From NCBI GenBank assembly GCA_033723355.1, contig JAWVXG010000003.1, forward strand, positions 64,747 through 128,746: a stretch of 64,000 nucleotides of DNA, given 5' to 3'. Under the pieces are notes generated by a model. It did not search any database. It had not been told where the DNA came from and worked only from the letters and a program-made list of their open reading frames with translations. A program made the position numbers and the translations under genes. Positions 31,685 to 55,459 of this stretch are shown here, in pieces (the first letter of the stretch is position 1; each line of letters begins with the position of its first letter). The stretch is from Paracoccaceae bacterium (GTDB lineage: Bacteria; Pseudomonadota; Alphaproteobacteria; Rhodobacterales; Rhodobacteraceae).

Positions 31685-32455
31685 ATGAAAATCATTCAGA
31701 TCACCGACACGCATCTTGTTCCTCCGGGGCAACTTCTGCACGGGCTTGACCCTTCGGCGCGGCTGCGCAAGGTGCTGGATCACGTCCGGGACACCCGTGC
31801 CGATGCGGATCTTCTGGTGTTCACCGGCGACATCGCCAATGACGGTGCCGAGGAGGCCTATCTCTCTCTCCGGGACATGCTGTCGGACATCCCGCTTCCG
31901 GTGCGTTTCATGCTGGGCAACCACGACCGCCGCGCCTCATTCCGCAAGATCTTCCCCGAGGCCGAGGTGGATGGCGCAGGCTTTGTGCAATCCGCCCTCG
32001 CAACAAGGGACGGGCGCGACCTGCTGGTTTTCCTCGACAGTCTGCACGAAGGGCAGATCGGCGGGCGGTTCTGCGATCAAAGGGCGGACTGGCTGCGCGA
32101 CACACTGGCCCAAACGCCAAAACTCCCGGTCACGGTCTTTGTCCATCACCCGCCGGTGGCCCATGGAATGCGCCATTTCGACAACACCGGCTTTCACGAT
32201 GCGGACACTCTGATGCAGGTTCTGCGGGCGCATCCCGGTGGGGTCCGGCACATCTTCTTTGGCCATATCCACATCCCGCTGAACGGTGTGACACGCGACG
32301 GCATCGGGTTCTCGGCAGGACGCGGATGCAACCACCAATTCGTGCAGGAATTCGACAACCCGGCACCGCCCTGGGCTGCCGGTCCTCTGAACTATACGAT
32401 CATCACGATCCGCGAGGATGGTGTCTTCGCCCAAGCGATCAGAGGGGTCGTTTGA
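31685..32455 (+). CDS. metallophosphoesterase (GpdQ-like phosphodiesterase), 3' end possibly altered by the island junction
   Basis: ITDTHL, GDIAND, GNHD, VHHPP, GHIHIP. Paralogue of 19149..19988 but ends earlier, exactly where the IS-derived sequence starts. Confidence 0.75.
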   Translation: MKIIQITDTHLVPPGQLLHGLDPSARLRKVLDHVRDTRADADLLVFTGDIANDGAEEAYLSLRDMLSDIPLPVRFMLGNHDRRASFRKIFPEAEVDGAGFVQSALATRDGRDLLVFLDSLHEGQIGGRFCDQRADWLRDTLAQTPKLPVTVFVHHPPVAHGMRHFDNTGFHDADTLMQVLRAHPGGVRHIFFGHIHIPLNGVTRDGIGFSAGRGCNHQFVQEFDNPAPPWAAGPLNYTIITIREDGVFAQAIRGVV

Positions 32456-32865
32456 TCGGCCGGACCAAGGGCGGCATGAACACCAAACTGCACGCCGTTA
32501 CCGATGCCGATGGACGTCCAATCCGCTTCTTCATGACCGCAGGCCAGGTCAGCGACTACACGGGGGCTGCGGCCCTGCTGGATAGCTTGCCATCCGCAGA
32601 ATGGCTGCTTGCCGACCGCGGCTATGATGCCGACTGGTTCAGAGATGCGTTAAAAGACAAGGGGATAAAGCCCTGCATCCCGGGCCGGAAGTCGCGCGGC
32701 AAGCCTGTCAAATACGATAAGCGCCGCTACAAACGCCGCAACAGGATCGAGATCATGTTCGGCCGCCTGAAGGACTGGCGCAGGGTTGCCACGCGCTACG
32801 ACAGGTGCCCGAAGGTCTTCCTCTCCGCCGTCGCCCTCGCCGCAACCGTCATGTTCTGGCTATGA
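32455..32865 (+). pseudogene. IS5-family (IS427-group-like) transposase, C-terminal DDE fragment only
   Basis: GRTKGGMNTKLHAVTDADGRPI ... LLADRGYDADWFRDAL ... YKRRNRIEIMFGRLKDWRRVATRYDR matches the C-terminal two thirds of OrfB-type IS5 transposases. The N-terminal DNA-binding part is absent. Confidence 0.75.
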
Positions 32866-33073
32866 CGAGAGAATGAGCCTGACCATAGTCAGATGGATTT
32901 GTTACGCACACATTCGCGCATGGGAGGAAACCTCGGTTCTCAGGCGCGCTCTCTGGTGTTGAGTGGTTGAGGCCAAGTCGGCAGTTAAACGTCTGCTTCT
33001 GCCGTCGGTCATTGGAGCCTTCGCACCCGTGGCGACCGTCCGCTTCCCGCTTAAGAAGGCTCTCAGGCCAAAT

Positions 33074-34021
33074 TCAGACCGGTTCGAATATTCCGAAGTT
33101 AGGAAGGTACCGATAGATTTCTTTAAACTGTCCCCTGTCTCGCTCCTTCAGCCATTCAATTTCAGGAATCCCGTCCGATGGCATTAGCCTCTCAAGTTTC
33201 GAAACCTCGAAAGGCGTAAGCTTCGGTATCTTAATAACGAATGCATCATCCGCATTCCTGTAGTAAATTAGCTGATCTAAACAACAGCCATCAAATGCAT
33301 CCTGCTCGTTGCGTTTGTATATAACCCACCCAACAGTCGCCATTGCTGCGCCATCACGATATCTGAAATAGCAAACCTGGGAGCAAATTCTTTGCTCGTC
33401 ATATGGCTTAGTTGCATCAGAATCATGCAGGGCACGCTCTAATGCCGCCCCTAGCGCTTCCCGCCCAAGATCAGAGTATTTTTTCCCAGAAAAGTCCTCT
33501 GGCTTTGAATCTTCGCCCACAAAATCAGGGAACTCTTCTCGAAGCCGATCCATTTCTTTGCCTGAACCAACTGTATCTGGAGGAATCCCACTGGCAAAAG
33601 AGACACAAAGGAAAGAGCCACTCTTGAGCCTCGCCCCAAGCGATGTGATGTCCGCTGCCATGTTTGCCGATAGCCGATCATCGTAATCAAGCCAGCAGAT
33701 CGACCTCCGCTCGTAGCTGAGCTTCGGAATGACATCCCAAGTATATCCGAACTCCATCTTAATACAGGCAAGCGGAGAATTCTGTCGAAAACGCTCCCGC
33801 GCGGCTTCGTCCTCCGTCGCCTCAATACTTACCATGTCGCAAATACCTAGACCACGATGGAACATGCGATGATCAATGAAACCAATTGAGCCCATGCCAA
33901 TATAAGAATACTGATCCACGTGATCGAACCTCAGTCTGCCAACGAGCTCGACTAGCATTTGCCTTTCCGCATGCTTCGCCGGGCGAAGCCTGTAATCGAT
34001 GCTTTCAAAGCTCCCCGTCAA
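33074..34021 (-). CDS. hypothetical protein, coupled partner of the GHKL ATPase (possible Rossmann/methyltransferase-like fold)
   Basis: 4-nt overlap with the upstream ATPase gene. YIGMGSIGFID ... MVSIEATED ... ICWLDYDD resembles the beta1, beta2 and beta4 motifs of class I SAM enzymes. This similarity is weak. Confidence 0.5.
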   Translation of the reverse strand: MTGSFESIDYRLRPAKHAERQMLVELVGRLRFDHVDQYSYIGMGSIGFIDHRMFHRGLGICDMVSIEATEDEAARERFRQNSPLACIKMEFGYTWDVIPKLSYERRSICWLDYDDRLSANMAADITSLGARLKSGSFLCVSFASGIPPDTVGSGKEMDRLREEFPDFVGEDSKPEDFSGKKYSDLGREALGAALERALHDSDATKPYDEQRICSQVCYFRYRDGAAMATVGWVIYKRNEQDAFDGCCLDQLIYYRNADDAFVIKIPKLTPFEVSKLERLMPSDGIPEIEWLKERDRGQFKEIYRYLPNFGIFEPV

Positions 34022-35403
34022 AGATCGTCCTCCTCAACAAGACGAGAAAATGCGAACTCAAAAGATTTGACGCCGACCTCTTTTGCGCTGCTCGCGCCGA
34101 GCGCAGTTTGAAGAGATGCTATTTCTGGCTCAGGTTTCTTGTAGGCAATATTCTTAAGTACCGGACCTCTCTTTACCGTAGCTTTTTGATAGGAGAATGT
34201 CTGCTGTACGGCCATCTTCGAAATCGGCGTGAGCGGCGCTTTTTGTAGAACACGCGAGATCACTTGATCTTCTGGAGAGAAATCCTTCTCGCTATCGAGT
34301 TCATTGAGAAAGTTAATAACAGGGCGAGCTATTTCCACAAGCCTTTGCCGAAGTCTGACAAAATCTGGGTGGTCAAAATCCAAATCTGTTTTTGTTGTAT
34401 TCCATGGAAGTCGATCCGGATCGTTGGAATCAAGAAATGCGTAGCCTCTAAATCTAGTAAACTGATTGTGGAATTTTGGCACGGACACCCCACCGGCACC
34501 AGGAAGATCACCCCAACCGGTTGTCGAACTTTGGTCTGCTGAAACAATGCATCTACCGTTGCAGAAAACATACCAGCCCGCTGCAGCCGGAGCAGATGGT
34601 CCAACTCCAGCATATATGCGACTTTTTAGAAGGCTCGCGCCACCTTCATCTTCGTAGACTTGATAGAATGGTGTGAGCTGCTCACTGGATGCGAGCTGCC
34701 ATGCAGGAGAGATAATTGCATCACCATTAACTCGGATGCTAAGACCGTTTCTGATAAAGTGCTGCTGAGACGTTTTGATCTCATGCACTACCCGATCATT
34801 AAAAAACTTTGTCGAAAAAAGACTGGAAACACCGGAATACAGTTTATTGACTGTGATTTTCGTGCCGGTACCCTCAACTCCTATCTCTTTCGTCTCCAAA
34901 CTTGATATCCTAAAATCCCAGTGCGGATCGGATATCCAAGCAGGTACATCAACCGATATCTCGTAGCTATCGCTCTGCGTCGTGGTCTCAACCTTGAAGT
35001 TCGCCCCCATTTTGAATAGAGATCGCTTCATCCCAACGCCAAATTGACCTACAGAACCGGGGGTGCCGTCAAATCCTTGGTCGCGGCCAAACTTGAACGC
35101 GTATTTCCTTGCAATATCCAGATCAATTCCGCCGCAATTATCTTCTATCGAAAAGCGTTCGGCGCTAAATTGAAGGTCTATCCACAATCCGTCGTACAGG
35201 CCCCCCCCGTCGCCAGCTTCGGAACTGCCGCGCAACCTCTTGGCGCCGTCGACGCAGTTGTCTACAAGGTCGGCGATGGCGTCCTCCAGACTCAGGTCTC
35301 TTGTGATGACCGAGCAGAAGAAGGCCTTTGTGGGGCTTGCATCAACGGATAGCGGGTCGCGCTCCGCCCCTTCCGCTCTGAGCTTGTTTCCGTCGTTCGT
35401 CAC
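34018..35403 (-). CDS. GHKL-superfamily ATPase (HATPase_c_3 / MORC-paraMORC-like)
   Basis: N-box DAIADLVDNCVDGAKR, G1 box IEDNCGGID, G2 box GSVGQFGVGMKRS. Confidence 0.8.
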   Translation of the reverse strand: MTNDGNKLRAEGAERDPLSVDASPTKAFFCSVITRDLSLEDAIADLVDNCVDGAKRLRGSSEAGDGGGLYDGLWIDLQFSAERFSIEDNCGGIDLDIARKYAFKFGRDQGFDGTPGSVGQFGVGMKRSLFKMGANFKVETTTQSDSYEISVDVPAWISDPHWDFRISSLETKEIGVEGTGTKITVNKLYSGVSSLFSTKFFNDRVVHEIKTSQQHFIRNGLSIRVNGDAIISPAWQLASSEQLTPFYQVYEDEGGASLLKSRIYAGVGPSAPAAAGWYVFCNGRCIVSADQSSTTGWGDLPGAGGVSVPKFHNQFTRFRGYAFLDSNDPDRLPWNTTKTDLDFDHPDFVRLRQRLVEIARPVINFLNELDSEKDFSPEDQVISRVLQKAPLTPISKMAVQQTFSYQKATVKRGPVLKNIAYKKPEPEIASLQTALGASSAKEVGVKSFEFAFSRLVEEDDL

Positions 35404-35483
35404 GTGAAATCCTCTTCATACCTGCTCGCTAAAACGCGCGCACCCAACTCGACTTACATACTGCTACATGCTATCGGGCGACA

Positions 35484-36602
35484 ATGAAAATGGAAAACAA
35501 TCGCGTAGTTGACCTGTTCTGTGGATGTTCAGGGCTTGGCCTAGGCGCCCGTCAGGCTGGCTTCGAGATTGCGCTTTCGATCGACATCGACCCCATCTTG
35601 ACCAGTTCCCACAGCAAGAACTTCCCCGGTGAAAGCGTTCACCTGGGAGATGTCGCGTCCATGAGCGGAAGCGAGCTGAAAAAGCTGGCTGGCGGCCCGA
35701 TCAATGGCATAGTGGGCGGGCCGCCGTGCCAAGGGTTTAGCTCCATGGGTAAATCTGACCCAAGTGACGTTAGACGGTCGCTGCTCGGCCATTTTTTTCG
35801 GATCATCTCCGAAGTGGAACCCGATTTCTTCCTGATGGAGAATGTTAAGGGACTGTTGGATCGACGCAACGTCGGTGAACTCGAGGCAGCTTTGGATCAG
35901 GTGAGAGATCGGTATAGCATTGCCGGTCCACATGTATTCAATGCAAAGGATTTTGGCGCAGCGACTAATCGGCCAAGAGTTTTCGTTCTGGGGCTAAAAA
36001 ATGGTGGATCAGAGCGTTTCTTGTCATGCATAGAAGCTAGAAAAAAGCCAGCAATCTCCGTTCGAGACGCAATCGAAGACCTTATTGGCGCAGAGCTTAT
36101 CTCTGATCGCAAATCGGAGATTGACTGGTGGCGAATAGAAGAAGGTGCTCGATTCAGCGAATACTCAAAGACAATGAGGGCTGAAGATGGTATTACGAGC
36201 GGGTTGAGAACTGTGCCCCATAGAGATGAGGTTGCTCAGAGATTCGCATCCGTGTTACCTGGCAAGGTGGATAAGATTGGTAGGCATTATAAGCTCGACT
36301 GGAATGGTCAGTGCCCCACTCTTCGCGCCGGCACTGGCCCGGACAAAGGATCATTTCAATCAGTACGTCCGCTGCATCCAGAACTGCCGCGTGTGATCAA
36401 TGTCCGTGAAGCCGCTCGGCTCCAAGGATTTCCTGATTGGTTCCAGTTTCATGGAACTTCTTGGCACAGCTTTAGAATGATCGGAAATAGTGTATCCCCT
36501 ATCATCTCACGCGAGATTTTTCTAGCCCTGATTGATGCAGGAATTGCAATCTGTGAGCCGCGGCCAAACTGGTCGCCTTATGCATGCACAGTACTGTTAT
36601 AG
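35484..36602 (+). CDS. dcm: DNA (cytosine-5)-methyltransferase
   Basis: Motif I DLFCGCSGLGLG, IV GGPPCQGFS, VI LMENVKGL, VIII TNRPRVFVLG, IX AARLQGFPDWF, X GNSVSP. Confidence 0.92.
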   Translation: MKMENNRVVDLFCGCSGLGLGARQAGFEIALSIDIDPILTSSHSKNFPGESVHLGDVASMSGSELKKLAGGPINGIVGGPPCQGFSSMGKSDPSDVRRSLLGHFFRIISEVEPDFFLMENVKGLLDRRNVGELEAALDQVRDRYSIAGPHVFNAKDFGAATNRPRVFVLGLKNGGSERFLSCIEARKKPAISVRDAIEDLIGAELISDRKSEIDWWRIEEGARFSEYSKTMRAEDGITSGLRTVPHRDEVAQRFASVLPGKVDKIGRHYKLDWNGQCPTLRAGTGPDKGSFQSVRPLHPELPRVINVREAARLQGFPDWFQFHGTSWHSFRMIGNSVSPIISREIFLALIDAGIAICEPRPNWSPYACTVLL

Positions 36603-37322
36603 CTTATGGCTCATTAAAACGCCGCTTTCAAAGGTTAACTCTTGGCACCATTAAGACATCGACGGGCATCGCATGACGAGAGCCATTGTGTTTGGATATC
36701 TTTAATGCATATTAGGTCGGAATTCGAACGGTTCTTGGGGGTGAGATCAGCTCTGCGGTTTGTGCTTATAGGGTGATCTTAGATACCAATTTTGGTGATT
36801 CGCGATTTTGATCGGTCGAATTCACATTCGGCGCACGGATCTCCCAGTCAAGTTCGGTGCCACGAATAGCGGCTTTCCGCCCTTCAAGTAGATTGTGCAC
36901 CGCAGCCCAATACGAGGTTCAGAATGCAACTTTGATTGCTATGTGATGCGTTTGGATGTCAGTTCCAGCTGAAACACCGAGACCCGCGTCGAGAAGCGAT
37001 TTTTAATCCAAATATTTTTACTACCAATCAATAACTTATAAACTCTTCACCAAATCGGCCCAGTCATCAGGTGTAGAGAATTTTGCAGCCTAGAGAACGT
37101 TTGTCAGCTGATGCTCGTCAAGTCAGGTGATCAGCCAAACATGCATAACTCTCTAAAACCACGGGAAAATCCGGGGGCCTCTAAACGGAGAGAATGTTTT
37201 CACCGGGGCAACTGGCGGAGGGGATGACTCTAATTCCCAACCCTCTCCCGTGCCGGTGTCCGCCTCGGCGTGATGGTTGCGAAACTCTGCGCAAATCTGA
37301 CGGACGTTAAAAAACCAGTTTG

Positions 37323-37640
37323 TCAGCCCGGACCAAAGTCATCCCGAAAGCGATCGATTTGGTGCATGCGTTCATGCAGGATGGTCACGATACCGATGTC
37401 GCCATTCGAGAGATGCCGCCAACAGACGAAATGGCGTTCGTATCGAAAGAAGAACCCTTCGACGCCGAACTCGGCCGGGATGGGCTTTGAAGCGACACCG
37501 TGAGCTGCGATCCTCTCGAAGGCTGCGAACAGGCCAGTGATGTAGGTCTCGGCTTGCGCATCACCCCATCTGTCGCGGGTGTAGCGGTAAATGTCGTCGA
37601 GGCGATGGGACGCCCCTTCCTGAATGCGAATGGCGGGCAC
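37323..37640 (-). CDS. parE: type II toxin, ParE/RelE family
   Basis: 105 aa with the ParE-like signature (RLDDIYRYTRDRWG ... ILHERMH). Lies 4 nt downstream of the antitoxin gene. Confidence 0.8.
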   Translation of the reverse strand: MPAIRIQEGASHRLDDIYRYTRDRWGDAQAETYITGLFAAFERIAAHGVASKPIPAEFGVEGFFFRYERHFVCWRHLSNGDIGIVTILHERMHQIDRFRDDFGPG

Positions 37641-37644
37641 TGGG

Positions 37645-37899
37645 TCAGCCCTGGTTCCGCGCGATCACCTCTGCCGCCGTTAGCGGCTTATACGTCTCCT
37701 CCGGAGCAGCGAAAGCATGGGCCAACTCGGCCTTCAACCGATTGAAGGCCTCCGCCTCAACCCGCTCCTTGTCACGTCGGATCAGGTCGCGGATGTACTC
37801 GCTGACGCTCTCATAGGACCCGTCATCGCCAACATTGGCCGAGACGAAGTCGCTCAAGGCTCCACCGATGCGGACGGTCATTGTGGTCGTTCGGGACAT
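37645..37899 (-). CDS. parD: type II antitoxin, ParD/CopG ribbon-helix-helix family
   Basis: 84 aa with YESVSEYIRDLIRRDKER, typical of ParD-like RHH antitoxins. Confidence 0.8.
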   Translation of the reverse strand: MSRTTTMTVRIGGALSDFVSANVGDDGSYESVSEYIRDLIRRDKERVEAEAFNRLKAELAHAFAAPEETYKPLTAAEVIARNQG

Positions 37900-37982: not shown

Positions 37983-38288
37983 CTAGTCGTCTGGCTCTTC
38001 GACAACGTGGCGGCCCGCAAGCGCCAGCAACACGTAAAGCACGGCATCCGAGTGCCGCGTGAGAGCGATCAGATGGTCACCGCTCGGCCCCCGTTCGCCC
38101 GAGAACCAGTATTTCACGGTACGTTCGCTGGCCCCCGTCCAGCGCATGGCCATCTTGATCGCGCGATGTGTTTCGCCCAGTTCCTCGTGCAAAGCCCGCG
38201 CCACCGCTGTTCGATAATCGGCTGGTTCTTCGACTAGGTGCACAAATGTGCCCATTTTCGGCACAACTGTGCCCATCTTCACCCGCAT
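37983..38288 (-). CDS. small HTH protein divergent from the serine recombinase
   Basis: HTH-like segment GASERTVKYWFSGERGPSGDHLIAL. The start is uncertain: ATGs at 38288, 38276 and 38255, with GGAGAAGGA before 38288. Confidence 0.5.
   Translation of the reverse strand: MRVKMGTVVPKMGTFVHLVEEPADYRTAVARALHEELGETHRAIKMAMRWTGASERTVKYWFSGERGPSGDHLIALTRHSDAVLYVLLALAGRHVVEEPDD
38247..38265. promoter_or_regulatory. palindrome TGTGCC-N7-GGCACA within an 18-bp direct repeat pair
   Basis: cacaaatgtgcccatttt (38241-58) and cacaactgtgcccatctt (38262-79) match at 16 of 18 positions, 21 bp apart. They lie in the divergent HTH/recombinase region. Confidence 0.35.
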
Positions 38289-38546
38289 ATCCACGTCCTT
38301 CTCCGTTAAATATCTGAAGAAGCATGAAAACGGCGAGAGCCGGATTTGTCCGTGACGGGTCATCAGACCGCGCCTGACAGATACGATTGATGGGAGAGGG
38401 CCGAGATGGATTGGCGAGTGAACCCGGGCATGCAGGCGAACGGAAAAACAATGCCCGTTTCGGGAAACAAATTTCCGGGCCCGTTCGCGTCAGATCGGAA
38501 AACGAAAGCCAACCCGAGCCGGATCGGCTGAATAGGAAAAAGCAAT

Positions 38547-40118
38547 TTGAGTAACGGTCGAGGCAACAGAACGGACGAAGGTGACGAGGTTGGGCAGGAT
38601 ATCCCAGCCGTCGCCTATGTCCGAATGTCGACTGATCACCAAAAATACTCGACCGAGAACCAGCTCGACGTCATCCGCAGCTACGCCGTTGCCCGCGGAC
38701 TGCAGATCTTGCGCGTATTCGAGGATTCAGGGCGTTCCGGGCTGCGGCTCGACGGCCGGGAGGCACTGCAGAACCTGATGGCCGAGGTCCAGTCTGGCCA
38801 GGCCGATTTCAAGGCGATCCTCGTCTATGACGTCAGCCGCTGGGGCCGGTTTCAGGATGCCGACGAGGGCGCCTACCACGAGCATGTCTGTTCACGCGCC
38901 GGGATCCGGGTCCACTACTGCGGCGAGCAGTTCGAGAATGACGGCAGCATCGGCTCGAACCTGCTAAAAACCGTCAAGCGGGTGATGGCCGGGGAATACA
39001 GCCGCGAGCTGTCGGTCAAGGTATTCGCCGGACAGTGCCGCCTCGTGGAACTCGGCTATCGTCAGGGAGGCGCAGCGGGTTACGGGCTGCGGCGCGTGCT
39101 CATCGACGAGCACGGCAATCCGAAGGGCGAACTGTCTCGCGGTGAGCAGAAAAGCCTGCAGACCGACCGCGTGATCCTCGTCCCCGGCCCCGAGGAGGAA
39201 CAGCGGGTCGTCCAGCGCATGTACGAGATGTTCGTCAACGAGATGCGCACGGAGCGTGAGATCGCGGAAATCCTGAACGGCGAAGGACACCGCACCGATC
39301 TCGACCGACTGTGGACGCGGGCCACCGTCCATCAGGTGCTGACGAACGAAAAATACATCGGGAACAATGTTTTCGCGAAGGTATCTTTCAAGCTGAAGCA
39401 GCGCCGCGTTGTGAACCCGCGAAAAATGTGGATCCGCGCGGAGGGTGCTTATCCCGCCATCGTCGATCAAGCGCTGTTCTTGCGCGCAAGAGAGATCGTG
39501 GATGCCCGAAGTCGCCATTTCTCGGATGAAGAACTGCTCGAGGCCCTACGCACCATCCTCAATCGCCAAGGCATGCTGTCGGGGCTGATCATCGACGAGC
39601 AGGACGGCCTGCCGTCCTCCAGTGCCTATCGCAGTCGATTCGGCAGCCTGCTGCGCGCCTACAGACTGATCGGATACGAGCCAGACCGGGACTACAGTTA
39701 CATCGAGGTCAACCGCACGCTGCGACAGGCGCATCCGCAGGTGGTGGCCGAGATTATCGCCGGGGTCACGCGGCAAGGCGGGTCGGCGGTGCAAAACCCG
39801 GAAACCGACCTGCTTCGCGTCAACGATGAGTTCACTTTGTCCATCGTGCTGGCCCGATGCACGTCGACAGAAGCCGGAGCCCTGCGCTGGCGCATCCGAC
39901 TCGACACCGGCCTGGTGCCGGACATCACCATCGCCGTGCGCATGGACGAGCTGAACGAGGTGCCACGCGATTACTACGTGCTGCCCAGCATCGACATGAC
40001 TTTTGGAAAACTGAAGTTCGCCGAGCAAAACGGGCTCGCGCTGGATGCGTACCGCTTCGACACACTCGATTTCTTCTACGCGCTCGCTTCGCGGGCCAGG
40101 ATCGCGGAGGTGGCTTGA
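38547..40118 (+). CDS. large serine recombinase
   Basis: Resolvase catalytic domain AYVRMSTDHQKYSTENQ ... VYDVSRWGR ... GEYSRELS, followed by a long recombinase domain. TTG or GTG start. Confidence 0.88.
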   Translation: MSNGRGNRTDEGDEVGQDIPAVAYVRMSTDHQKYSTENQLDVIRSYAVARGLQILRVFEDSGRSGLRLDGREALQNLMAEVQSGQADFKAILVYDVSRWGRFQDADEGAYHEHVCSRAGIRVHYCGEQFENDGSIGSNLLKTVKRVMAGEYSRELSVKVFAGQCRLVELGYRQGGAAGYGLRRVLIDEHGNPKGELSRGEQKSLQTDRVILVPGPEEEQRVVQRMYEMFVNEMRTEREIAEILNGEGHRTDLDRLWTRATVHQVLTNEKYIGNNVFAKVSFKLKQRRVVNPRKMWIRAEGAYPAIVDQALFLRAREIVDARSRHFSDEELLEALRTILNRQGMLSGLIIDEQDGLPSSSAYRSRFGSLLRAYRLIGYEPDRDYSYIEVNRTLRQAHPQVVAEIIAGVTRQGGSAVQNPETDLLRVNDEFTLSIVLARCTSTEAGALRWRIRLDTGLVPDITIAVRMDELNEVPRDYYVLPSIDMTFGKLKFAEQNGLALDAYRFDTLDFFYALASRARIAEVA

Positions 40119-41026
40119 TGCCCGAAGATTTGGAACTGACCAGCCAGAAGCAAGTGACCCTGATCCCGACCGACCGGATCCGGATCCTCAATCCCCGCGT
40201 CCGCAACCGGCGCGCTTTTGCAGAAATGGTCGAGAACATCGCTCGCATCGGCCTGAAGCGCCCGATCACTGTGGCGCCGCGCGCCGGGACCGATCCGCAG
40301 GAATACGACCTCGTCTGCGGACAGGGCCGGCTCGAGGCTTTCATCGAACTCAAACAGGACAGCATCCCTGCAATCGTGATCGACGCCGACGAGAGCGACT
40401 GCCTTGTCATGAGCCTCGTCGAAAACTGCGCGCGGCGGCAGCACAACCCCATCGACCTGATGCGGGAGATCGGCGCGCTCCGCCAGCGCGGCTACAGCGA
40501 CCGCCAGATTGGCGAGAAGATCGGCGTGTCCACCGAGTATGTAACCATGATCGCCGGGCTTCTGGAGAAGGGAGAGGAGCGTCTGGTATCGGCCGTGGAA
40601 ACCGGAACTCTTCCGCTGAACCTCGCCATCCAGATTTCCAAGACCGATGCGAAGGGCGCTCAGAAGGCGCTTATGGACGCCTACACCCAGAACAAGCTGC
40701 GCGGCCGAAAGCTGGCGCTTGTTCGCCGGCTGATCCAGCAACGCGAACTGCGTGGCCCCCAACTCCAGAACAACCCGCTCGGACGCCGGATAGCAAAGCG
40801 GGGGCTGACCAGTGAAGGCCTTGTCCGGGCTTATCAGCAGGAGGCCACGCGCCAGAAGCTGCTGATCAAGAAGGCAGAGCTCACCCAGAGCCGACTGATG
40901 TTCGTGCGCGAGGCCTTCCGAACGCTCTGCACGGACGCGCATTTCATGACGCTGCTCAGGGCCGAGGGGCTGGAGACGATGCCTGCCGATCTCGCCCGGT
41001 CCGTCACTGAGGGGGCATCGGCATGA
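40118..41026 (+). CDS. ParB N-terminal domain protein
   Basis: ATGA overlap with the recombinase stop. ParB/Srx box LVCGQGRLEAF, followed by an HTH (YSDRQIGEKIGVSTEYV). Confidence 0.75.
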   Translation: MPEDLELTSQKQVTLIPTDRIRILNPRVRNRRAFAEMVENIARIGLKRPITVAPRAGTDPQEYDLVCGQGRLEAFIELKQDSIPAIVIDADESDCLVMSLVENCARRQHNPIDLMREIGALRQRGYSDRQIGEKIGVSTEYVTMIAGLLEKGEERLVSAVETGTLPLNLAIQISKTDAKGAQKALMDAYTQNKLRGRKLALVRRLIQQRELRGPQLQNNPLGRRIAKRGLTSEGLVRAYQQEATRQKLLIKKAELTQSRLMFVREAFRTLCTDAHFMTLLRAEGLETMPADLARSVTEGASA

Positions 41027-41940
41027 AACGCGAGGCCCGCGAGCCCCCACGCAGGGTCAGTCTCGGGTTCGAGGACGACTGCGTCACCCTCCCCATTGAT
41101 GCCATTCTGCCGCTGCGCGCCTTCGGCAAGTCCGCCAAATCCAGCCGGAAGTACCGGCAGATCGTGGCCTCCATCGCCCAGATCGGGATCGTCGAGCCGC
41201 CCGTCGTCGTCCGGAACCCTGACAAGTCCGCAACCTGGTTGCTGCTCGACGGTCACATGCGCATCGAGGCGTTGAAGGACGCAGGCGCGATCGAGGTGGA
41301 ATGCCTGGTCTCCACCGACGATGAAGCCTTCACCTACAACCGGCAGGTTAGCCGTCTCGCGCCGATCCAGGAACACAAGATGATCCGAAAGGCGATTGAG
41401 CGCGGCGTGCCGGAGGAGAAGATCGCGCTCGCGCTCGATCTCAACATGAGCAGCATCAGGCGTAAGGTCCGCCTGCTGGACGGCATCTGTGAGGAAGCCG
41501 TCGCGATCCTGAAGGACAAGCCCGCGACCGGCGCAGTGTTCGACGCGCTGCGCAAGATGAAAACCATGCGCCAGATCGAGGCGGCCGAACTGCTTGTCAA
41601 CGCCAACAACTATTCCGTCGCCTACGTGAACGCGATCCTCGCGGGAACGCCGCAGGCCCAGCTGGTCGAGTCCTCCAAGCCGAAGAAGGTCAAGGGCATT
41701 ACGCCCGAGGCGATGGCACGGATGGAGCAGGAACTGGCCCGCCTGCAGGAAGGGATCGCTTCCATCCAAGACACCTACGGCCAGGACCATCTGCACTTGA
41801 CCGTGATCAAGGGCTACGTCGGCAAGCTGCTCGGGAACGCCCGGGTCGTGCGCTACCTGGCTCAGAACCATCCTGAGTTTCTCGGTGAATTCCAGACCAT
41901 CACCGAGATCACGCCGGCAGAGGCCACTGAGGCCGGGTAG
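41023..41940 (+). CDS. ParB-like protein (RepB-C-terminal-like)
   Basis: ATGA overlap with the upstream gene. ParB box LLLDGHMRIEAL. HTH EEKIALALDLNMSSIRR. Confidence 0.7.
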   Translation: MKREAREPPRRVSLGFEDDCVTLPIDAILPLRAFGKSAKSSRKYRQIVASIAQIGIVEPPVVVRNPDKSATWLLLDGHMRIEALKDAGAIEVECLVSTDDEAFTYNRQVSRLAPIQEHKMIRKAIERGVPEEKIALALDLNMSSIRRKVRLLDGICEEAVAILKDKPATGAVFDALRKMKTMRQIEAAELLVNANNYSVAYVNAILAGTPQAQLVESSKPKKVKGITPEAMARMEQELARLQEGIASIQDTYGQDHLHLTVIKGYVGKLLGNARVVRYLAQNHPEFLGEFQTITEITPAEATEAG

Positions 41941-42430: not shown

Positions 42431-42628
42431 ATGAACGAAGCAGCCGCACCGACAACTCATCTCACCATAAGGGAGGCTGCAAACCTCCTAGGTGTATCTG
42501 TTGCAACGCTAAGAAACTGGGATCGGCAGGACAAACTGAAGCCGCGCCGCCATCCGATCAATGGCTACCGCATGTATGACCGTGCCGAGATCGTGCGGCT
42601 TAAAGAACAAATCGAAGGGAAAGTATGA
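42431..42628 (+). CDS. MerR-family/excisionase-type HTH protein, leader gene of the methyltransferase operon
   Basis: LTIREAANLLGVSVATLRNWDRQDKL. Its stop overlaps the M1 start. Confidence 0.7.
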   Translation: MNEAAAPTTHLTIREAANLLGVSVATLRNWDRQDKLKPRRHPINGYRMYDRAEIVRLKEQIEGKV

Positions 42629-43599
42629 AACCCGCCGCCCAATCTCTCACGGAAAAAGATCAAACGAACCTTCAGCCTGCAAAGCGCCGGGGCCGCCCAC
42701 GCAAAGATGCCGAGCCAAAGGCTATGGTGGAAGCTGAAACAGATAGCGCTGGCCAGGACGACCTTCCCGCCACCGTCGACCCTCGCAATAAACTCAACGA
42801 CCTGACTGCGAAGGAATGGATTCCCGAGACCGTTTCCGTTTGGAATCAGCGCGGGCTTGGTGCCGGGCATCCCGATGCACAGATTGAGCGACAGCATCCT
42901 GCGCCGTTCTCTTTCACGGACGTTGGCCGTCTCATTCGTTTCTTCACCAAGAGAGGCCATACTGTCCTCGACCCCTTCGTTGGCGTTGGCTCAACCTTAA
43001 AGGCCTGCGCGATCGACGAACGCCATGGCATCGGTATCGAACTAAACCCTGATTTTGCGGAGTTGTCTCGGCAGAGGCTTGCTACCGAGGTCCGCGATAT
43101 GTTCTCAACCGTGGACGGGCAGCGCATCCTCGAAGGCGACGCTCGGGATCACTTACCTACACTTGCTGACGAGAGTGTGGATTTTGTCGTAACCAGTCCA
43201 CCCTATTGGTCTATCCTCAAAAAGGTAGACCACAAGGTGCGCCAAGAGCGCACTGGCAAGGGACTAGCCAAAGACTACGGCGAACATGAGGACGACCTTG
43301 CAAAGATCGAAAACTATGACGATTTCTTGCGAGAGCTAGCAGCAATCTTCGGTGAGTGTGCCAGAGTTCTGAAACGTGGCCACTATATGGCAATCATCGT
43401 CAGCGACTTCCGCGACAAATCAAAATACATCATGTTCCACGCCGACTTAGCACGAGCACTGGAAGCCTATGGAATGGAAATGCGCGGCCTTAAGGTCCTG
43501 TATCAGCGCCACAAGAAAGTGTTCCCCTACGGATACCCTTATTCCTACGTCCCCAACATCCACAATCAGTACATCCTAATCCTCCAGAAGCCGAAATAA
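42625..43599 (+). CDS. DNA methyltransferase (N4-cytosine/N6-adenine family; SPPY type)
   Basis: HPAPFSF ... VLDPFVGVGST (AdoMet motif I) lies upstream of the catalytic DFVVTSPPYW. Confidence 0.85.
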   Translation: MKPAAQSLTEKDQTNLQPAKRRGRPRKDAEPKAMVEAETDSAGQDDLPATVDPRNKLNDLTAKEWIPETVSVWNQRGLGAGHPDAQIERQHPAPFSFTDVGRLIRFFTKRGHTVLDPFVGVGSTLKACAIDERHGIGIELNPDFAELSRQRLATEVRDMFSTVDGQRILEGDARDHLPTLADESVDFVVTSPPYWSILKKVDHKVRQERTGKGLAKDYGEHEDDLAKIENYDDFLRELAAIFGECARVLKRGHYMAIIVSDFRDKSKYIMFHADLARALEAYGMEMRGLKVLYQRHKKVFPYGYPYSYVPNIHNQYILILQKPK

Positions 43600-44393
43600 T
43601 GTTAGAATCCCACATCGTTCATGGCGATTGCATTGAAGGGATGGCCGCCCTTGAAGCTGGTTCCTTCAATCTAATTGTGGCCGACCCACCATATAACTTG
43701 AACAAAGATTTTGGTCCGTGGAAGGAGACTGAGCGCAAAGCAGAATGGCGCGATTGGACACGCTCATGGCTAGAGGAAGCCAGCCGCCTCCTCTCTGATG
43801 AAGGTAATATTTTCGTCTATGGGATTCATCACCACATGTGCTGGGTTCAATGCATGATGCTGGAAATGGGATTGATTTACAGGCGTCAGATCATTTGGCA
43901 CTATGAGAATGGCTTTGCCGGCTACGGGAAGCGTTCCCTCAATGCCACCTACGAGCCCTTGCTTTGGTTCTCAAAAACTGACCGCTATATCTTCACGCCC
44001 ATCCGCGAGCCCTACAAAAGTCAGGAACGCCTGAAGCACAAAATAATAAAGAACGGCAAAGTTTGGGAACCCCATCCTGACGGCCGCATGGCTGGTGACA
44101 TTTGGTCATTCCCGACTCTAGCGGGCCGCCGATTCCGTGACGAAAAGGTCAACCACCCGACTCAGAAGCCGCTCTCGATATCTCGAAGAATCGTAAAGCA
44201 CTTCTCCAATCCCGGCGACACGGTGCTTGTGCCTTTTGCCGGCAGTGGGAGCGAGTGCGTAGCGGCCGTTATGGAGGGGAGAGGTTATCTTGGCTTCGAG
44301 CTAAATGGTGAATATATCGAATTGGCGCGCAATCGCATCGACAGTGTTCCGGTCGCCACTGATCCGGACCAGGCAGATATGTTTTCTACTTAG
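43599..44393 (+). CDS. DNA methyltransferase (beta-class N6-adenine/N4-cytosine; DPPY type)
   Basis: Catalytic IVADPPYN near the N-terminus, HPTQKP, then VLVPFAGSGSE. Its start overlaps the M1 stop. Confidence 0.88.
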   Translation: MLESHIVHGDCIEGMAALEAGSFNLIVADPPYNLNKDFGPWKETERKAEWRDWTRSWLEEASRLLSDEGNIFVYGIHHHMCWVQCMMLEMGLIYRRQIIWHYENGFAGYGKRSLNATYEPLLWFSKTDRYIFTPIREPYKSQERLKHKIIKNGKVWEPHPDGRMAGDIWSFPTLAGRRFRDEKVNHPTQKPLSISRRIVKHFSNPGDTVLVPFAGSGSECVAAVMEGRGYLGFELNGEYIELARNRIDSVPVATDPDQADMFST

Positions 44394-45414
44394 CCGGTTT
44401 GAACGCGCCAGCATATGGTTCAATCAGCTTTGCATTATCGAGACCAAGAAATTCGTCCAAGTTCACCACACTTTCACCGATAGTGTATGCGTCGCCGTTA
44501 AAACCGTCGAGCTTCGTGCAATTCCACATGAGTGCGACAAGCGCACCGATCGTGACGGTGCGACATCTGAGACCAAGCACCTTCTCGATGTCGCGGATCA
44601 CCTGATAGTACTCCGAACGGACGTTTGGAAGTGACAGGATGATACTGACAGGATCGATACCATCGACTGCGTAGCCATAGCGGGAGTGCAGCACGGCCAC
44701 GTCCTCGAGAAGCGCGCGTGGGGAATCCAGCACACCTGCGCCTGTTTCAATCTCCGCTACAAATGGTCTTTCGTTGCGCGAGAAACCAACAGCGTCAATG
44801 CGCATGTTGGTATCCCCGCGCCGCCGTGTGCGGGCGTTTAGTCCAACTTCGTTAAGAAGGTTCCTGACGAACAGGGTTGTCCGAGCATCCTCCAGGGACC
44901 CGACAGTTGTCGGAAAATTGGCGGCGGCGGGTGCGTCCAGTGTTGCAATCTGCCCGCTGCGATTCACTTCCGGATGCTCGCCTTTCGTCGCGGCCAAAAC
45001 GACCAGTCCGTCGGGGTCCGCCGTTTCGACGCTGGCGGTCAGACCATTGAGCAAGCTGATTGCGCCGTAGGGGCATCGCCTGATGCACAAACCGCAGCCA
45101 ATGCAATCATCCGCGACGACATAAGCGCTGGAGGCTTCGCTGTCCCAACGGATTGCTCTCGTCGGGCAAACATCGCGGCTGGGATCGCCGGGAAAAGCAT
45201 CGAGAGCGCCGAACAGCGTCAGCTCGCTGTCCTCCTTTTCCATACAGGGTGCGCTGCCGCATCCGAGGCAGCTTCCGGCACCGGAGCGCCCATCAGCCAG
45301 CATGATCGCCGTGCGTGTCTCATGTTCGTAACGCACCCCTTCCACGTTCGCGGCGTAGTGCCGCGCAAATGTCCCAGCTGGGCGTGTGCCTTTGTGAACG
45401 ACGAAATCAGACAT
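44386..45414 (-). CDS. ferredoxin-type 2x[4Fe-4S] domain protein with an uncharacterised C-terminal domain; coupled to the restriction nuclease
   Basis: Eight Cys arranged CLGCGSAPC ... CP and CIGCGLCIRRCP. The start at 45414 overlaps the upstream stop by 8 nt. The C-terminal half contains RIDAV ... FVAEIET. Confidence 0.75.
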   Translation of the reverse strand: MSDFVVHKGTRPAGTFARHYAANVEGVRYEHETRTAIMLADGRSGAGSCLGCGSAPCMEKEDSELTLFGALDAFPGDPSRDVCPTRAIRWDSEASSAYVVADDCIGCGLCIRRCPYGAISLLNGLTASVETADPDGLVVLAATKGEHPEVNRSGQIATLDAPAAANFPTTVGSLEDARTTLFVRNLLNEVGLNARTRRRGDTNMRIDAVGFSRNERPFVAEIETGAGVLDSPRALLEDVAVLHSRYGYAVDGIDPVSIILSLPNVRSEYYQVIRDIEKVLGLRCRTVTIGALVALMWNCTKLDGFNGDAYTIGESVVNLDEFLGLDNAKLIEPYAGAFKPAK

Positions 45415-47116
45415 CAAGGAACCCCCGAAGCTGGCTGAGTTGCCCTGCTTCAATCGTCACGCCATCGCGCATTGCGCGAAGGGTGAGGTGGGCAAGGGTC
45501 GTCAAATCGATCACGCCCAGACGCAGACCAAAGGCTTTGAACACGTCATCAATCAAGTTCGACATCTCGCCGCGTTCGTTGGGAAGGCGATTGCCGACAA
45601 CGAGACTTGCCAAGTCGGGATGTGTTTCCAACCCTCCCCGCGAGAGCAGGATCACCTTGTTTTCGAGCGCCTGCCGAACCGCCTTCGTAGACAGCATGAC
45701 CTCTTCTGTAGGTGACTTGATCTCGACCGGCAGAGCATAGCCATCGACCTTTATATAGGCATCCCAACGCTGGTAATTCACGCCAGCGCGCGAATAATCG
45801 CTCTCAAATCCAAGTATTTGAAAGAGGTGCGTCACTAGCGGGTAGAACGCGGTTTGCGTGTCCTTCGCGTGGTTTTCCGCGAATTTCGCAGCTGCAACAC
45901 TGATCTTGCCGTGAGCTTCCAGCAATTCGGCTAATTCAGCCCTAAGCGTGTCAGGGCCGCCCACGCCAGCCCCTTCTGCCGCGACCAAGTTCGGATGCAC
46001 GAACAAGTGCGAACGGTCGTCCCGCCCGTCCGGGGCTTCCAACGCCATCACACGGCCTTTACCTTCCTCTATGTGGGCGGTTTGCTCACTAGGCGCAAAG
46101 GCGGCGGCAATATCACCAAGCGAAAGGGACTGGAACGGCGAGAACAACAGGTCGCGTCCATCCGCGCCTAACCTCCCGAACACCGGCGCTACGGTAGTTT
46201 CCGCGTCAGCGATGCGCTGCTCAAGCGGCGCGATGTCAAAGCCCGACCGTTCCAGCATACGAAAGTGAGCCACGACGGCGAGCGCGTTGCGCTCTTCCGG
46301 AGCGATCTGCGCCGCCTCATCGGCGCGCAGATCGACGCTGCCGTCTACGCGCTCTGCTAGCATCTGGCCTTTTTCGGTCAGATGGAAGGTTCCGTATTTT
46401 CTGCCATCCCTGAATCTCGCCTGTCCCCGCGTCGCCCATCCCAAATCCCGAAGCAGGGCAATCGGCCATCGCGTGTAGTTCTGCAGCGTGTTGACCTGAA
46501 TCTTCCGCGCATCCGACACCGTTTGCACAGCTTCGCCCGAAGCCACCGCGCTCTCGCGCGCGGCTTCGATAGTCGCTACCACCGCATCCAGATCCTTCTT
46601 GCCGCGATCCCTCGCGGCACTCAGCGGCCCAATGATCATTTCGTCGCGTGACAGGTGGCCGCCGCAAGCCGCCATCACGCGCAAGATGAAGGCAAAAGGT
46701 CGAAGGTCGAAATCGCCCTTCACTGCAAGGATAGGCGTCGGATAAACGATCCCGAGCACGCACTCTTCGAGGAGCGGGCCGAAATCACGCCCGGCCGCGA
46801 CTACTTGCTGGCCAAGCAGTGTGAACGTGAAGTTCAAGGCGCTTTGCGGAGTAGGATGCAGCCATCCCAAAATCCGGAACAATTCAGCATACATCTTGAG
46901 CTGATTGTAGAGCGGATCACGGCTGCGATCAGCGCGGGTAGAACGCGCCACTGCTTCCTCGCCCATGTAGCCTGACGACGTTGCCATATTGGCGGCGACC
47001 ACCGCTGCGACAATCTCGTCGAGGTTTACTGTACGCCCGCTCAATCGCTCGAAAGCCGCCCCATAGACACGTACAAAATTCTCAATTGTGGAGCCTGGAT
47101 TTGGAAATCTCAACAT
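45407..47116 (-). CDS. restriction endonuclease, large subunit (C-terminal PD-(D/E)xK; possibly AlwI/BstNBI-like)
   Basis: RWDAYIKVDGYALPVEIKSP gives a D...E-x-K motif. Lies between the C-protein gene and the FeS gene, convergent with two methyltransferases. Start placed at the ATG at 47116, just after the C-gene stop. Confidence 0.7.
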   Translation of the reverse strand: MLRFPNPGSTIENFVRVYGAAFERLSGRTVNLDEIVAAVVAANMATSSGYMGEEAVARSTRADRSRDPLYNQLKMYAELFRILGWLHPTPQSALNFTFTLLGQQVVAAGRDFGPLLEECVLGIVYPTPILAVKGDFDLRPFAFILRVMAACGGHLSRDEMIIGPLSAARDRGKKDLDAVVATIEAARESAVASGEAVQTVSDARKIQVNTLQNYTRWPIALLRDLGWATRGQARFRDGRKYGTFHLTEKGQMLAERVDGSVDLRADEAAQIAPEERNALAVVAHFRMLERSGFDIAPLEQRIADAETTVAPVFGRLGADGRDLLFSPFQSLSLGDIAAAFAPSEQTAHIEEGKGRVMALEAPDGRDDRSHLFVHPNLVAAEGAGVGGPDTLRAELAELLEAHGKISVAAAKFAENHAKDTQTAFYPLVTHLFQILGFESDYSRAGVNYQRWDAYIKVDGYALPVEIKSPTEEVMLSTKAVRQALENKVILLSRGGLETHPDLASLVVGNRLPNERGEMSNLIDDVFKAFGLRLGVIDLTTLAHLTLRAMRDGVTIEAGQLSQLRGFLDV

Positions 47117-47117
47117 A

Positions 47118-47357
47118 CTATCTATCTGAATTCCTTGCTGAATAAGAAAAAAGTTCGGCCAAATTGATCTCCAGCCCTTCAGCAATTTTCTCGATAACGC
47201 TTAGAGTTGGGTTGCGGTCTCCGCGTTCGACACCGCCTATGTAGCTCCTGTCCAGTCCGGCACGCTCGGCCAACTCTTCTTGTGTGAGCCCAGCCGTCGC
47301 GCGCGCCTGACGGACAGCGTCTCCGAATCTGCTCGAATTCTTGTTTTTTTTCGCCAT
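47118..47357 (-). CDS. XRE-family controller (C) protein
   Basis: 79 aa with the HTH GLTQEELAERAGLDRSYIGGVERGDRNP. Lies immediately upstream of the nuclease, with C-boxes upstream. Confidence 0.85.
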   Translation of the reverse strand: MAKKNKNSSRFGDAVRQARATAGLTQEELAERAGLDRSYIGGVERGDRNPTLSVIEKIAEGLEINLAELFSYSARNSDR

Positions 47358-54850: not shown

Positions 54851-55043
54851 CGCATGCCTCCCGCTGCTCGGCGATCGTGATCACCGGCTCCACCAGCGCA
54901 TCCCCGGTCGCGCGCAGCCGATCGACCTCGATGCCGTGAGCAAGGAAATCCTGCCAGTCCAGCCCATGGCGGCGGAACCATGGCCGCACGCCTGCGAGGC
55001 AATAGCGGGCATCGCGCAGGTCCTGGATCGTCACGCGGGTCAC
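54837..55043 (-). CDS. small phage protein (68 aa) between the I-like and J-like genes
   Basis: GTG start overlapping the upstream stop (GTGA). Its 3' end overlaps the J start by 14 nt. No motif recognised. Confidence 0.4.
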   Translation of the reverse strand: MTRVTIQDLRDARYCLAGVRPWFRRHGLDWQDFLAHGIEVDRLRATGDALVEPVITIAEQREACDGRA

Positions 55044-55288
55044 TTCTTTCCGCCTTTCTTCTTGATCGGATCAACCTTCAGGTCGCCTGCCCAGACGACG
55101 TTCGGCCCGGTGATCAGCACCGTCCCGAACACCACCGGGATCGGCCGACCCTCCTCGGCGGTGGGCAGCGAAAAATCATCGAGCCCTGCGGCTTGCGGCT
55201 TCTCGACCTTGGGGCGCGGGCTCAGCGCATAGGAAATCGCCGAGAGCACCAGCCCGAGGACGAGCCGTGCGATAAAGGTCCAGACCAT
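55040..55288 (-). CDS. tail assembly protein, lambda gpI C-terminal-domain-like
   Basis: A hydrophobic N-terminus followed by PTAEEGRPIPVVFGTVLITGPNVVWAGDL parallels the gpI C-terminus (NVLPVLYGEMRVGSRVV). Confidence 0.6.
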   Translation of the reverse strand: MVWTFIARLVLGLVLSAISYALSPRPKVEKPQAAGLDDFSLPTAEEGRPIPVVFGTVLITGPNVVWAGDLKVDPIKKKGGKK

Positions 55289-55459
55289 GGATGGTGCTCA
55301 CGATGGGTTGCAACAGTCAGCGAGTCGTTGTTCTTGATAGGATCGTCGCTGGACGCTTCGTACCCGTCTGCGTCCAGATCAAAGGGCGAAAGATCTTGAA
55401 CGATTTACCGGCACTGGCAGTGGCATAAGCCCAGTCCGCATAATAGAAGACGCTACGAT

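Follow-up and report, generated by a model that had tools for sequence, protein, structure and literature searches.

Prokaryotic ATPases of the MORC and paraMORC families were predicted in 2008 to be components of restriction–modification (R-M) systems, linked to Dcm methylases, Vsr and HNH proteins (Iyer, Abhiman & Aravind, 2008; PMC2292703). In the same survey, paraMORC1 was described with a C-terminal extension and HNH neighbours, and a minority class of MORC operons with methylases and no helicase was mentioned. We describe here a three-gene cassette from a stretch of 64,000 nucleotides of a Paracoccaceae bacterium (GenBank assembly GCA_033723355.1, contig JAWVXG010000003.1, positions 64,747 to 128,746; hereafter the window), in which genes for a MORC-type GHKL ATPase and a partner protein of family PF20553 are transcribed divergently from the gene for a C5 cytosine DNA methyltransferase (Dcm). 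A preliminary description of the window, made from its letters alone, had pointed to a computationally predicted R-M role for MORC-like GHKL ATPases, and the 2008 paper does contain that prediction. The cassette is a strong candidate for a new system of defence against phages and plasmids that depends on DNA marks, built around an ATPase–partner pair that occurs with either of two kinds of DNA-marking genes. We know of no bacterial MORC-type ATPase from the 2008 prediction that has been characterised experimentally.

Other described systems come close to the cassette in part. The HEF_HK/Response_reg_2 duplets adjoin C5 methylases (Bellieny-Rabelo et al., 2021; PMC8011034). In the field of DNA phosphorothioation by Dnd enzymes, DndI is a phosphorothioate-sensing ATPase in which the mark stimulates ATP hydrolysis, leading to release from self DNA (PMC11662687). 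A 2024 reappraisal of Dnd gene neighbourhoods notes systems with a DndE–HerA/FtsK fusion, as well as cytosine methylases able to replace phosphorothioation, and never mentions GHKL/MORC proteins. Finally, the sequencing study of the Pseudomonas Pf phage PfAC20 listed the methylase of this phage as an incomplete R-M system, its two neighbouring genes going unrecognised. No description of the pair was found in the searchable literature on PF20553, on GHKL/MORC proteins with phosphorothioation or on HATPase proteins with dndFGH, nor was any paper that names PF20553.

The cassette forms a block of low GC content (0.47–0.54, versus about 0.65 in the surrounding DNA). Its elements are the following:

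33047-36889, limits of the three-gene cassette, the sole DNA common to the window and Salipiger aestuarii (locus L001)
33074-34021, minus strand, partner gene (315 amino acids, TTG start)
34018-35403, minus strand, GHKL ATPase gene, MORC-type (461 amino acids, GTG start)
34018-34036, minus strand, ATPase–partner coupling junction, where the ATPase TGA stop overlaps the partner TTG start
35404-35483, 80-bp divergent spacer between the ATPase–partner operon and dcm
35484-36602, plus strand, dcm, C5 cytosine DNA methyltransferase gene (372 amino acids)

The coordinates, the 4-nucleotide overlap and the complete, divergent Dcm at a distance of 80 bp are all present as the preliminary description gave them. 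The ATPase and partner genes are translationally coupled: they have four nucleotides in common (34018-34021), the junction as read directly from the sequence is ...GAG GAG GAC GAT CTT TGA with the partner TTG start within CTTTGA, and a Shine-Dalgarno-like GAGGAGGA run lies directly 5' of that start. Both promoters are presumably located in the 80-bp spacer, a role that is presumed only, because a scan for the sigma-70 consensus returned no site within 35404-35483; the sites that it returned in the wider region were not above chance. Similarly, scans of the cassette for promoters, terminators and repeats gave nothing above chance, and no inverted or direct repeats flank it that would delimit an insertion. 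The absence of vsr and of a conventional endonuclease, which had also been remarked upon, holds over the 64 kb of the window, where tblastn with Vsr, HNH, PLD-helicase, glycosylase and Dnd queries from related loci gave no genuine match. The lone hit suggestive of a vsr remnant was an antisense open reading frame (ORF) within the ATPase gene and was discarded as an artefact.

Conservation of the neighbourhood was followed in 80 loci from GTDB species genomes (Proteobacteria, Acidobacteria, Verrucomicrobia, Firmicutes, Actinobacteria, Chloroflexi, Bacteroidetes and others) and in replicate samples consisting of seven IMG/VR viral contigs plus phage PfAC20, one distant member and 80 metagenome loci. 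Contexts were defined by clustering the neighbouring ORFs and annotating representatives; several apparently conserved neighbour clusters (3, 8 and 10-15) were antisense shadows of real genes and were rejected. The ATPase gene is directly upstream of the partner gene on the same strand in 80/80 genome loci, 8/8 viral or phage loci, 1/1 further locus and 67/67 metagenome loci with room for both, that is in 156/156 loci with enough flank, a total that is not fully independent since some contigs recur across the collections. The junction overlaps by 1–4 nucleotides in most of the 80 genome loci, and the two proteins co-diverge (rho 0.71, Mantel p 0.001), in keeping with the coupled partner of the preliminary description. 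The ATPase and its partner are thus an obligate pair that recurs beyond chance.

This pair stands beside DNA-marking genes of two mutually exclusive kinds at about 98% of the informative loci, all but two of the well-flanked ones, with Dcm at about 70% and dnd genes at about 25–30%. Co-conservation with a methylase had been put forward as the check on the three-gene module, and the module passes it: a C5 methylase is near the pair in 55 of the 80 genome loci, in all eight viral loci (seven IMG/VR contigs and PfAC20, each with Dcm, ATPase and partner), in the distant member and in 16 of the 23 well-flanked metagenome loci. The distant member (L089) has, in independent gene calls, HATPase_c_3, Methyltransf_35 and DNA_methylase genes in a row, beside McrBC. 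The other genome loci comprise 21 with dnd genes and four with neither; of these four, two are truncated at the end of a contig, the ATPase gene of another is degraded, and the pair of the last, L062, is intact. The other seven well-flanked metagenome loci all carry dnd. About a quarter of the loci have dnd genes in place of a methylase gene; the pair is therefore linked to DNA self-marking in general and not to Dcm as such. No third type of modification (N6A, N4C or others) was found as partner module in 169 loci.

In the Dcm context, the methylase is less than 200 bp from the pair in 30 of 55 loci, and the commonest order is dcm, ATPase, partner on one strand. Accessory genes of this context encode Vsr (35 of 55 loci), HhH-GPD glycosylases (5) and HNH proteins (4). 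Minimal triads, with no accessory nuclease, Vsr or glycosylase, are found at 15 genome loci, in the window and at most of the viral loci. The 21 dnd loci encode DndC (above the TIGR03183 cut-off), a DndD-like ABC ATPase, a DndE–HerA/FtsK fusion and a convergent cysteine desulfurase, sometimes also DndB or the PLD-helicase 'dnd_restrict_1', and they are entirely devoid of Vsr and glycosylase genes. Neither DndFGH nor any other known restriction gene was found near the pair in the loci with the fusion.

Fusions of DndE with HerA/FtsK are reportedly a discovery of Krishnan et al. in 2020. In the present collection, the fusion gene abuts the start of the ATPase gene at L018, L022, L024, L025, L027, L028, L031, L033, L048 (5464-6951), L053, L061, L063 and L079. 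The order of the Dnd-linked operon is dndC, dndD-like, dndE-HerA, ATPase, partner, and the cysteine desulfurase gene is convergent to it.

The ATPase matches the Pfam family PF13589 (HATPase_c_3; E 6.5e-10, 39.6 bits versus a cut-off of 25), and its Pfam matches are limited to PF13589 and PF02518. The Bergerat-fold motifs reported earlier, DLVDNCVDG (45-53), DNCGGID (88-94) and GQFGVGMK (119-126), are present in the translation and coincide with invariant positions in an alignment of 30 family sequences, in which the consensus of the lid is G119-x-F-G-x-G-M-K and the C-terminal half is likewise strongly conserved. More generally, GHKL motifs I–IV are intact (D45/N49/D52; D88-N-C-G91-G92; G119-Q-F-G122-V-G124; T181) and invariant or nearly so across 30–80 sequences. 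The AlphaFold2 model (predicted local distance difference test, pLDDT, 83) consists of a GHKL domain, an S5-like transducer and a basic C-terminal helical region. In Foldseek comparisons, it aligns over about 400–480 columns with the N-terminal and middle domains of Hsp90/TRAP1 and with the ATPase and transducer domains of GyrB (E 1e-13 to 1e-11), with low template-modelling (TM) scores of about 0.3 because of domain orientation. As modelled, the protein has the GHKL and S5 arrangement known from MutL and MORC proteins.

In addition, the MORC S5 motif GhXhhpXXRhl is present as GWYVFCNGRCI at positions 276-286. The motif is matched strictly by 66 of 80 family members versus 17 of 694 other long ORFs (2.4%), and G276 and R284 are invariant; this is a comparison with a pattern and not with the aligned residues of a genuine MORC S5 domain. 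The intact motifs, the fold and the S5 signature uphold the earlier assignment to a MORC-like ATPase. The best matches of the family profile in the PDB are MORC4 (E 0.13) and MORC2 (E 0.5), which are not significant and cover the N-terminal motifs only; to judge from its sequence, the ATPase could equally belong to a paraMORC family.

The preliminary description had assigned the partner to no family and had seen weak Rossmann-like motifs in it. The Rossmann-like character stands, whereas the rest does not, since the protein is a full-length member of PF20553 (Methyltransf_35, 'putative O-methyltransferase'; E 4.7e-94, 315.6 bits versus a cut-off of 27; residues 4-310 of 315 on profile positions 2-305 of 309), a family name that is an annotation, SAM (S-adenosylmethionine) binding and methyl transfer by the partner being putative. 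All 32 aligned homologues match PF20553, and a permissive Pfam scan of these 32 sequences returned no secondary family similarity; at the level of sequence the family is isolated. It comprises 2269 representatives at 50% identity, nearly all of them standalone proteins of 305–345 amino acids. An exhaustive profile search for fusions likewise returned standalone proteins only and therefore gave no Rosetta-stone clue.

The AlphaFold2 model of the partner (pLDDT 86) is a canonical seven-strand class I SAM-methyltransferase with a helical insert and a C-terminal extension. Strand 1 (39-43) is followed by G42-x-G44, strand 2 (62-67) ends in E67, strand 4 (107-116) bears D112-Y-D114 at its end, and strands 6 and 7 form a hairpin (211-236). 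The residues of the G-rich loop, the acidic residue of strand 2 and those of motif IV are all invariant and belong to some 30 invariant positions, many of them polar, which include G42/G44, E67, D112-Y113-D114 and R13/K16/E19/R20. The Foldseek comparison that had been proposed for both proteins thus gives a GHKL ATPase with a transducer and a methyltransferase fold: more than 500 matches of the partner are methyltransferases, its nearest PDB folds are cation-dependent O-methyltransferases and Trm1, at modest TM-scores, and a viral structure library returned generic methyltransferases only.

The third protein, Dcm, matches PF00145 (E 2.1e-58), TIGR00675 (143.9 bits versus a cut-off of 100.65) and the type II methyltransferase model of PADLOC (E 7.7e-88). 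Its translation contains all catalytic motifs (FCGCSG, GGPPCQGFS, the ENV of MENVKGL, and GNSVSP), and it is the presumed self-marking component of the cassette.

The marking module is exchangeable. In the partner tree, the Dnd-linked pairs make up one large clade and two or more further groups, separate from it, that lie within the Dcm-linked pairs; therefore, the marking module has been exchanged several times. The co-divergence of Dcm with the pair is weak (rho 0.20–0.26). The ATPase motifs and the SAM-loop, acidic and motif IV residues of the partner are invariant in Dcm-linked and Dnd-linked clades, and from these residues both proteins look catalytically competent. Context-specific substitutions cluster in the transducer loop (G296, P309, Q314) and the C-terminal helix (N367, D370) of the ATPase. 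The cassette is also mobile as a whole. The window and its closest relative, S. aestuarii, are 89% identical over 3852 nucleotides, confined to 33047-36889; as the DNA that they share is exactly the three genes, the triad is a horizontally transferred unit. It is found again in the accessory region of phage PfAC20.

As in the MORC operons surveyed in 2008 (PMC2292703), the ATPase combines GHKL and S5 domains with intact ATPase motifs and the S5 signature, is linked to Dcm, Vsr and sometimes HNH genes, and has a sporadic, horizontally mobile distribution. In contrast, the PF20553 partner, the obligate two-gene unit and the link to phosphorothioation are not described in that paper, and most of its MORC operons have an SF2 helicase and a recognisable nuclease, both of which are missing from the cassette of the window. 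The HEF_HK duplet, which is paraMORC-related and uncharacterised, is similarly made of a HATPase_c_3 protein and a small conserved partner with a C5 methylase beside them (PMC8011034); the present ATPase differs in having neither PF19191 nor a second HATPase_c, and the partner belongs to PF20553 and not to PF19192. The cassette also lacks the feature that defines classical type II R-M systems, namely a cognate endonuclease with a nuclease fold beside the methylase.

At about a quarter of the loci, the pair occupies, beside dndA/C/D/E, the position of a restriction partner, comparable to that of DndFGH, DndI, SspE, SspFGH and PbeABCD/CxC. An ATPase activity tuned by the self mark would be a mechanistic parallel to DndI. 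However, searches of PADLOC, NCBIfam and the PDB, which includes the DndI crystal structure (SspE is also structurally characterised), revealed no sequence relation of the pair to DndFGH, DndI, SspE or Pbe. Moreover, the phosphorothioate restriction systems carry identifiable nuclease or nickase domains, and the copy of the pair in the window is linked to Dcm and not to Dnd. A MutL/GHKL-type ATPase, as in the cassette, is also used in two validated anti-phage systems, Mza (mzaABCDE) and Shedu type I-D/paraMORC3 (VcSduA), but their architecture is different and the pair has no match to MzaB-E or the DUF4263 nuclease. BREX and eukaryotic MORC silencing provide functional analogies, as their ATPases act on DNA together with a methyltransferase or methyl mark and no obvious nuclease. 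The components of BREX are not homologous to the pair; eukaryotic MORCs repress methylated DNA, whereas the logic proposed here is action on unmarked DNA. Eukaryotic MORCs act downstream of DNA methylation.

Reference libraries gave a consistent picture. No PADLOC family matched the ATPase or the partner, only the methylase being recognised; NCBIfam had no match for either protein; in PHROGs, the pair matched families of unknown function only; and PDB sequence searches with single proteins and family profiles returned nothing significant for either. The general theme of MORC or paraMORC genes beside Dcm, Vsr and HNH genes was thus already predicted by 2008, and the pair itself is undescribed in the libraries and literature searched. 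What is new beyond the preliminary description is that the partner has been identified, that the pairing is obligate and that Dcm and Dnd marking modules are interchangeable.

The pair is one functional unit tied to DNA self-marking and indifferent to the type of mark or the lineage of the methylase. Since a sequence-specific nuclease would not tolerate such swaps of module, it is more likely that the pair either senses the mark directly or docks onto the modifying enzyme, by analogy with type III systems, in which Res relies on Mod. R-M-like defence is the most economical reading once the defence-island and prophage-accessory contexts and the 2008 MORC/paraMORC prediction are considered. We estimate at roughly 55% the probability that the triad is a self-contained mobile R-M-like defence cassette in which the MORC–partner complex is an ATP-dependent effector. 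The candidate ATP-dependent restriction or defence module of the preliminary description is thereby supported, as a candidate, by the linkage to methylase or dnd genes and by the mobile-defence context.

The gene content, conservation, coupling and modularity of the cassette are observed; from them we infer restriction by the cassette and the steps that would lead to it, namely self-marking by Dcm, complex formation, a clamp, sensing of the mark and a terminal effect. Dcm would mark the host's own DNA with 5-methylcytosine, and the ATPase and PF20553 partner, produced from one coupled operon, would form an ATP-dependent, probably SAM-binding effector complex. ATP binding may dimerise the ATPase into a DNA clamp, as in other GHKL clamps, and the mark or the marking enzyme may promote ATP turnover and release from self DNA, as in DndI. 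Incoming DNA without the mark would keep the complex closed, and the invader would be blocked. The pair would read no specific sequence and would work with whichever marker is attached, Dcm here and DndACD(E) phosphorothioation in the sister clade. For the terminal step, two options seem about equally probable: a non-nucleolytic block, in which DNA is clamped or compacted on the model of BREX or eukaryotic MORCs, or a cut made by a nuclease that is either cryptic or recruited, such as those encoded by the Vsr or HNH genes inserted in some operons. That no nuclease domain is apparent in the pair raises the possibility of a mechanism that does not cleave. The more specific proposal of a nuclease-free effector, which would read the missing self mark (5-methylcytosine or phosphorothioate) and neutralise invading DNA by ATP-driven clamping or compaction, is doubtful and is offered tentatively.

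A number of observations weigh against such a defence cassette. No nuclease domain was found in the ATPase or the partner by Pfam, NCBIfam, PADLOC, PDB sequence search or Foldseek, and at many loci, the window included, there is no accessory nuclease within 7 kb. Both proteins are acidic (isoelectric point about 5–6), the only basic part being the C-terminal helices of the ATPase, and the acidity of the partner does not favour strong stand-alone DNA binding by this protein. At L062, an intact pair is found in an integrase island, followed downstream by an Mrr gene, and neither a methylase nor a dnd gene occurs within 10 kb of it; this would be unexpected if the pair were toxic without protection, although a marking gene could lie elsewhere in that genome. 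Furthermore, the conserved, apparently active methyltransferase fold of the partner has no explained role in a restriction effector, and the clamp and mark-sensing steps are drawn by analogy.

Three other explanations account less well than a defence cassette for the dual linkage to Dcm and Dnd or for the minimal triads. The one that survives best, although unlikely, is that the MORC–partner complex is an accessory of modification, which helps or regulates the marking enzymes (by loading them on DNA or limiting over-modification), or that a second methyl mark is placed by the partner itself; mobile elements would then carry the cassette as a module for epigenetic purposes or self-protection (anti-restriction) alone. 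All SAM-binding and catalytic-type residues are retained in the partner, which on that evidence may be an active methyltransferase, and no nuclease domain was found in the pair. This explanation also agrees with the presence of the cassette on mobile elements and phage, which profit from protective marks, and with the place of the pair inside the modification operon of dnd loci, right after dndC-dndD-dndE/HerA. However, characterised Dcm and Dnd enzymes are generally known to need no such helpers, the lineages of Dcm are freely swapped, and the fact that the same invariant partner chemistry serves both base methylation and backbone sulfur is better suited to a common downstream reader or effector.

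It is improbable that the cassette serves repair or damage control, with a MutL-like ATPase and its partner coordinating the repair of lesions caused by the mark, such as T:G mismatches from deamination of 5-methylcytosine or phosphorothioate-related breaks, in parallel with the stimulation of Vsr by MutL in E. coli. The GHKL and transducer architecture is common to MutL, the MutL–Vsr functional interaction is established (cited in PMC2292703), and the Vsr, glycosylase and HNH genes of the Dcm-linked loci would fit this role. On the other hand, the minimal triads have no Vsr or glycosylase, the Dnd-linked loci are without any, and a repair factor is not expected as a phage accessory gene, in defence islands, or to be missing from most Dcm-bearing genomes. 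Least probable of all is an abortive-infection toxin, in which the ATPase would sense infection and the partner would then methylate RNA, protein or a nucleotide, a target in the cell other than DNA, with the marking module as sensor or antidote only: the partner is acidic, its nearest folds are small-molecule O-methyltransferases and a tRNA methyltransferase and not DNA methylases, and the cassette is found in defence islands, but the tie of the pair to two kinds of DNA-marking genes would be left unexplained, MORC and MutL relatives act on DNA, and methyltransferase toxins are, as far as is known, unusual among defence effectors.

The 2008 prediction presented bacterial MORC-type ATPases as R-M components and as ancestors of the eukaryotic MORC chromatin silencers, and the cassette bears on that origin. 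With three genes in 3.85 kb, it is a minimal clonable example. With over 2000 clusters at 50% identity, the partner family is large, and PADLOC, NCBIfam and PHROGs have no characterised entry for it. One pair associated with two chemically unrelated marks, 5-methylcytosine and phosphorothioate, amounts to a natural experiment on a generic effector that reads 'self', and it may account for some 'orphan' Dcm or Dnd systems without a known restriction partner, such as the Pf-phage methylase. If the nuclease-free clamp were true, it would be the first functional prokaryotic MORC, from which MORC-based epigenetic silencing in eukaryotes would directly descend, and it would give Dnd phosphorothioation systems a new restriction partner.

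In the window, the cassette is flanked by these features:

32326-32865, plus strand, truncated IS5-type (insertion sequence) DDE transposase, abutting one side of the cassette
37323-37899, minus strand, ParE toxin gene with an ORF for an 84-amino-acid antitoxin-like protein, on the other side
38547-40118, large serine recombinase gene, followed by two RepB/ParB-like genes (38547-41940 overall)

The mobile and defence setting of the ATPase–partner pair is shown by this toxin–antitoxin pair, the recombinase and the insertion sequence fragment, and elsewhere by McrBC and Mrr and by the Pf-phage accessory region. Type IV restriction genes are directly beside the pair at L062 (Mrr, L062:11111-11959) and L089 (McrBC, L089:229-4033), which therefore have a defence-island setting. 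In S. aestuarii, the cassette adjoins a gene for a 1053-amino-acid PLD-ResIII helicase-DUF3427 protein (L001:11315-15196, minus strand) and a small class I methyltransferase, a neighbourhood that is a separate putative restriction module lacking from the window.

Two families of neighbouring genes were noted beside the pair at other loci. One encodes proteins of 272 amino acids (L076:5532-6350, minus strand; also L013, L045, L057, L059 and L069), occurs only where Dcm and Vsr are beside the pair, and has no Pfam or NCBIfam match; it is a candidate unrecognised restriction endonuclease. The other encodes an HNH_2 protein directly upstream of the ATPase gene at L003, L004, L007, L009 and L080 (L080:7829-8743). 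The N-terminal domain of this protein, of about 180 amino acids, has no assignment, and its HNH_2 domain resembles those of phosphorothioate-DNA-binding restriction enzymes, with a score below the family cut-off.

Further along the window, a tandem 20-nucleotide direct repeat (GCACAAATGTGCCCATTTTC / GCACAACTGTGCCCATCTTC) is located at 38240-38280, just 5' of the serine recombinase gene, and the region 38240-41940 resembles the core of a mobile element, with functions of integration and partition. A second patch of low GC content contains two adjacent N6/N4 DNA methyltransferase genes (PF01555; 42625-44393, plus strand, with 44386-47185, minus strand), beside genes for a 4Fe-4S protein and a 592-amino-acid ORF with no Pfam match; this patch (42625-47185) may represent a further module of modification or defence within the same island. 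A third patch, at 55000-57000, has a GC content of 0.55 versus about 0.69 around it and is possibly another acquired segment.

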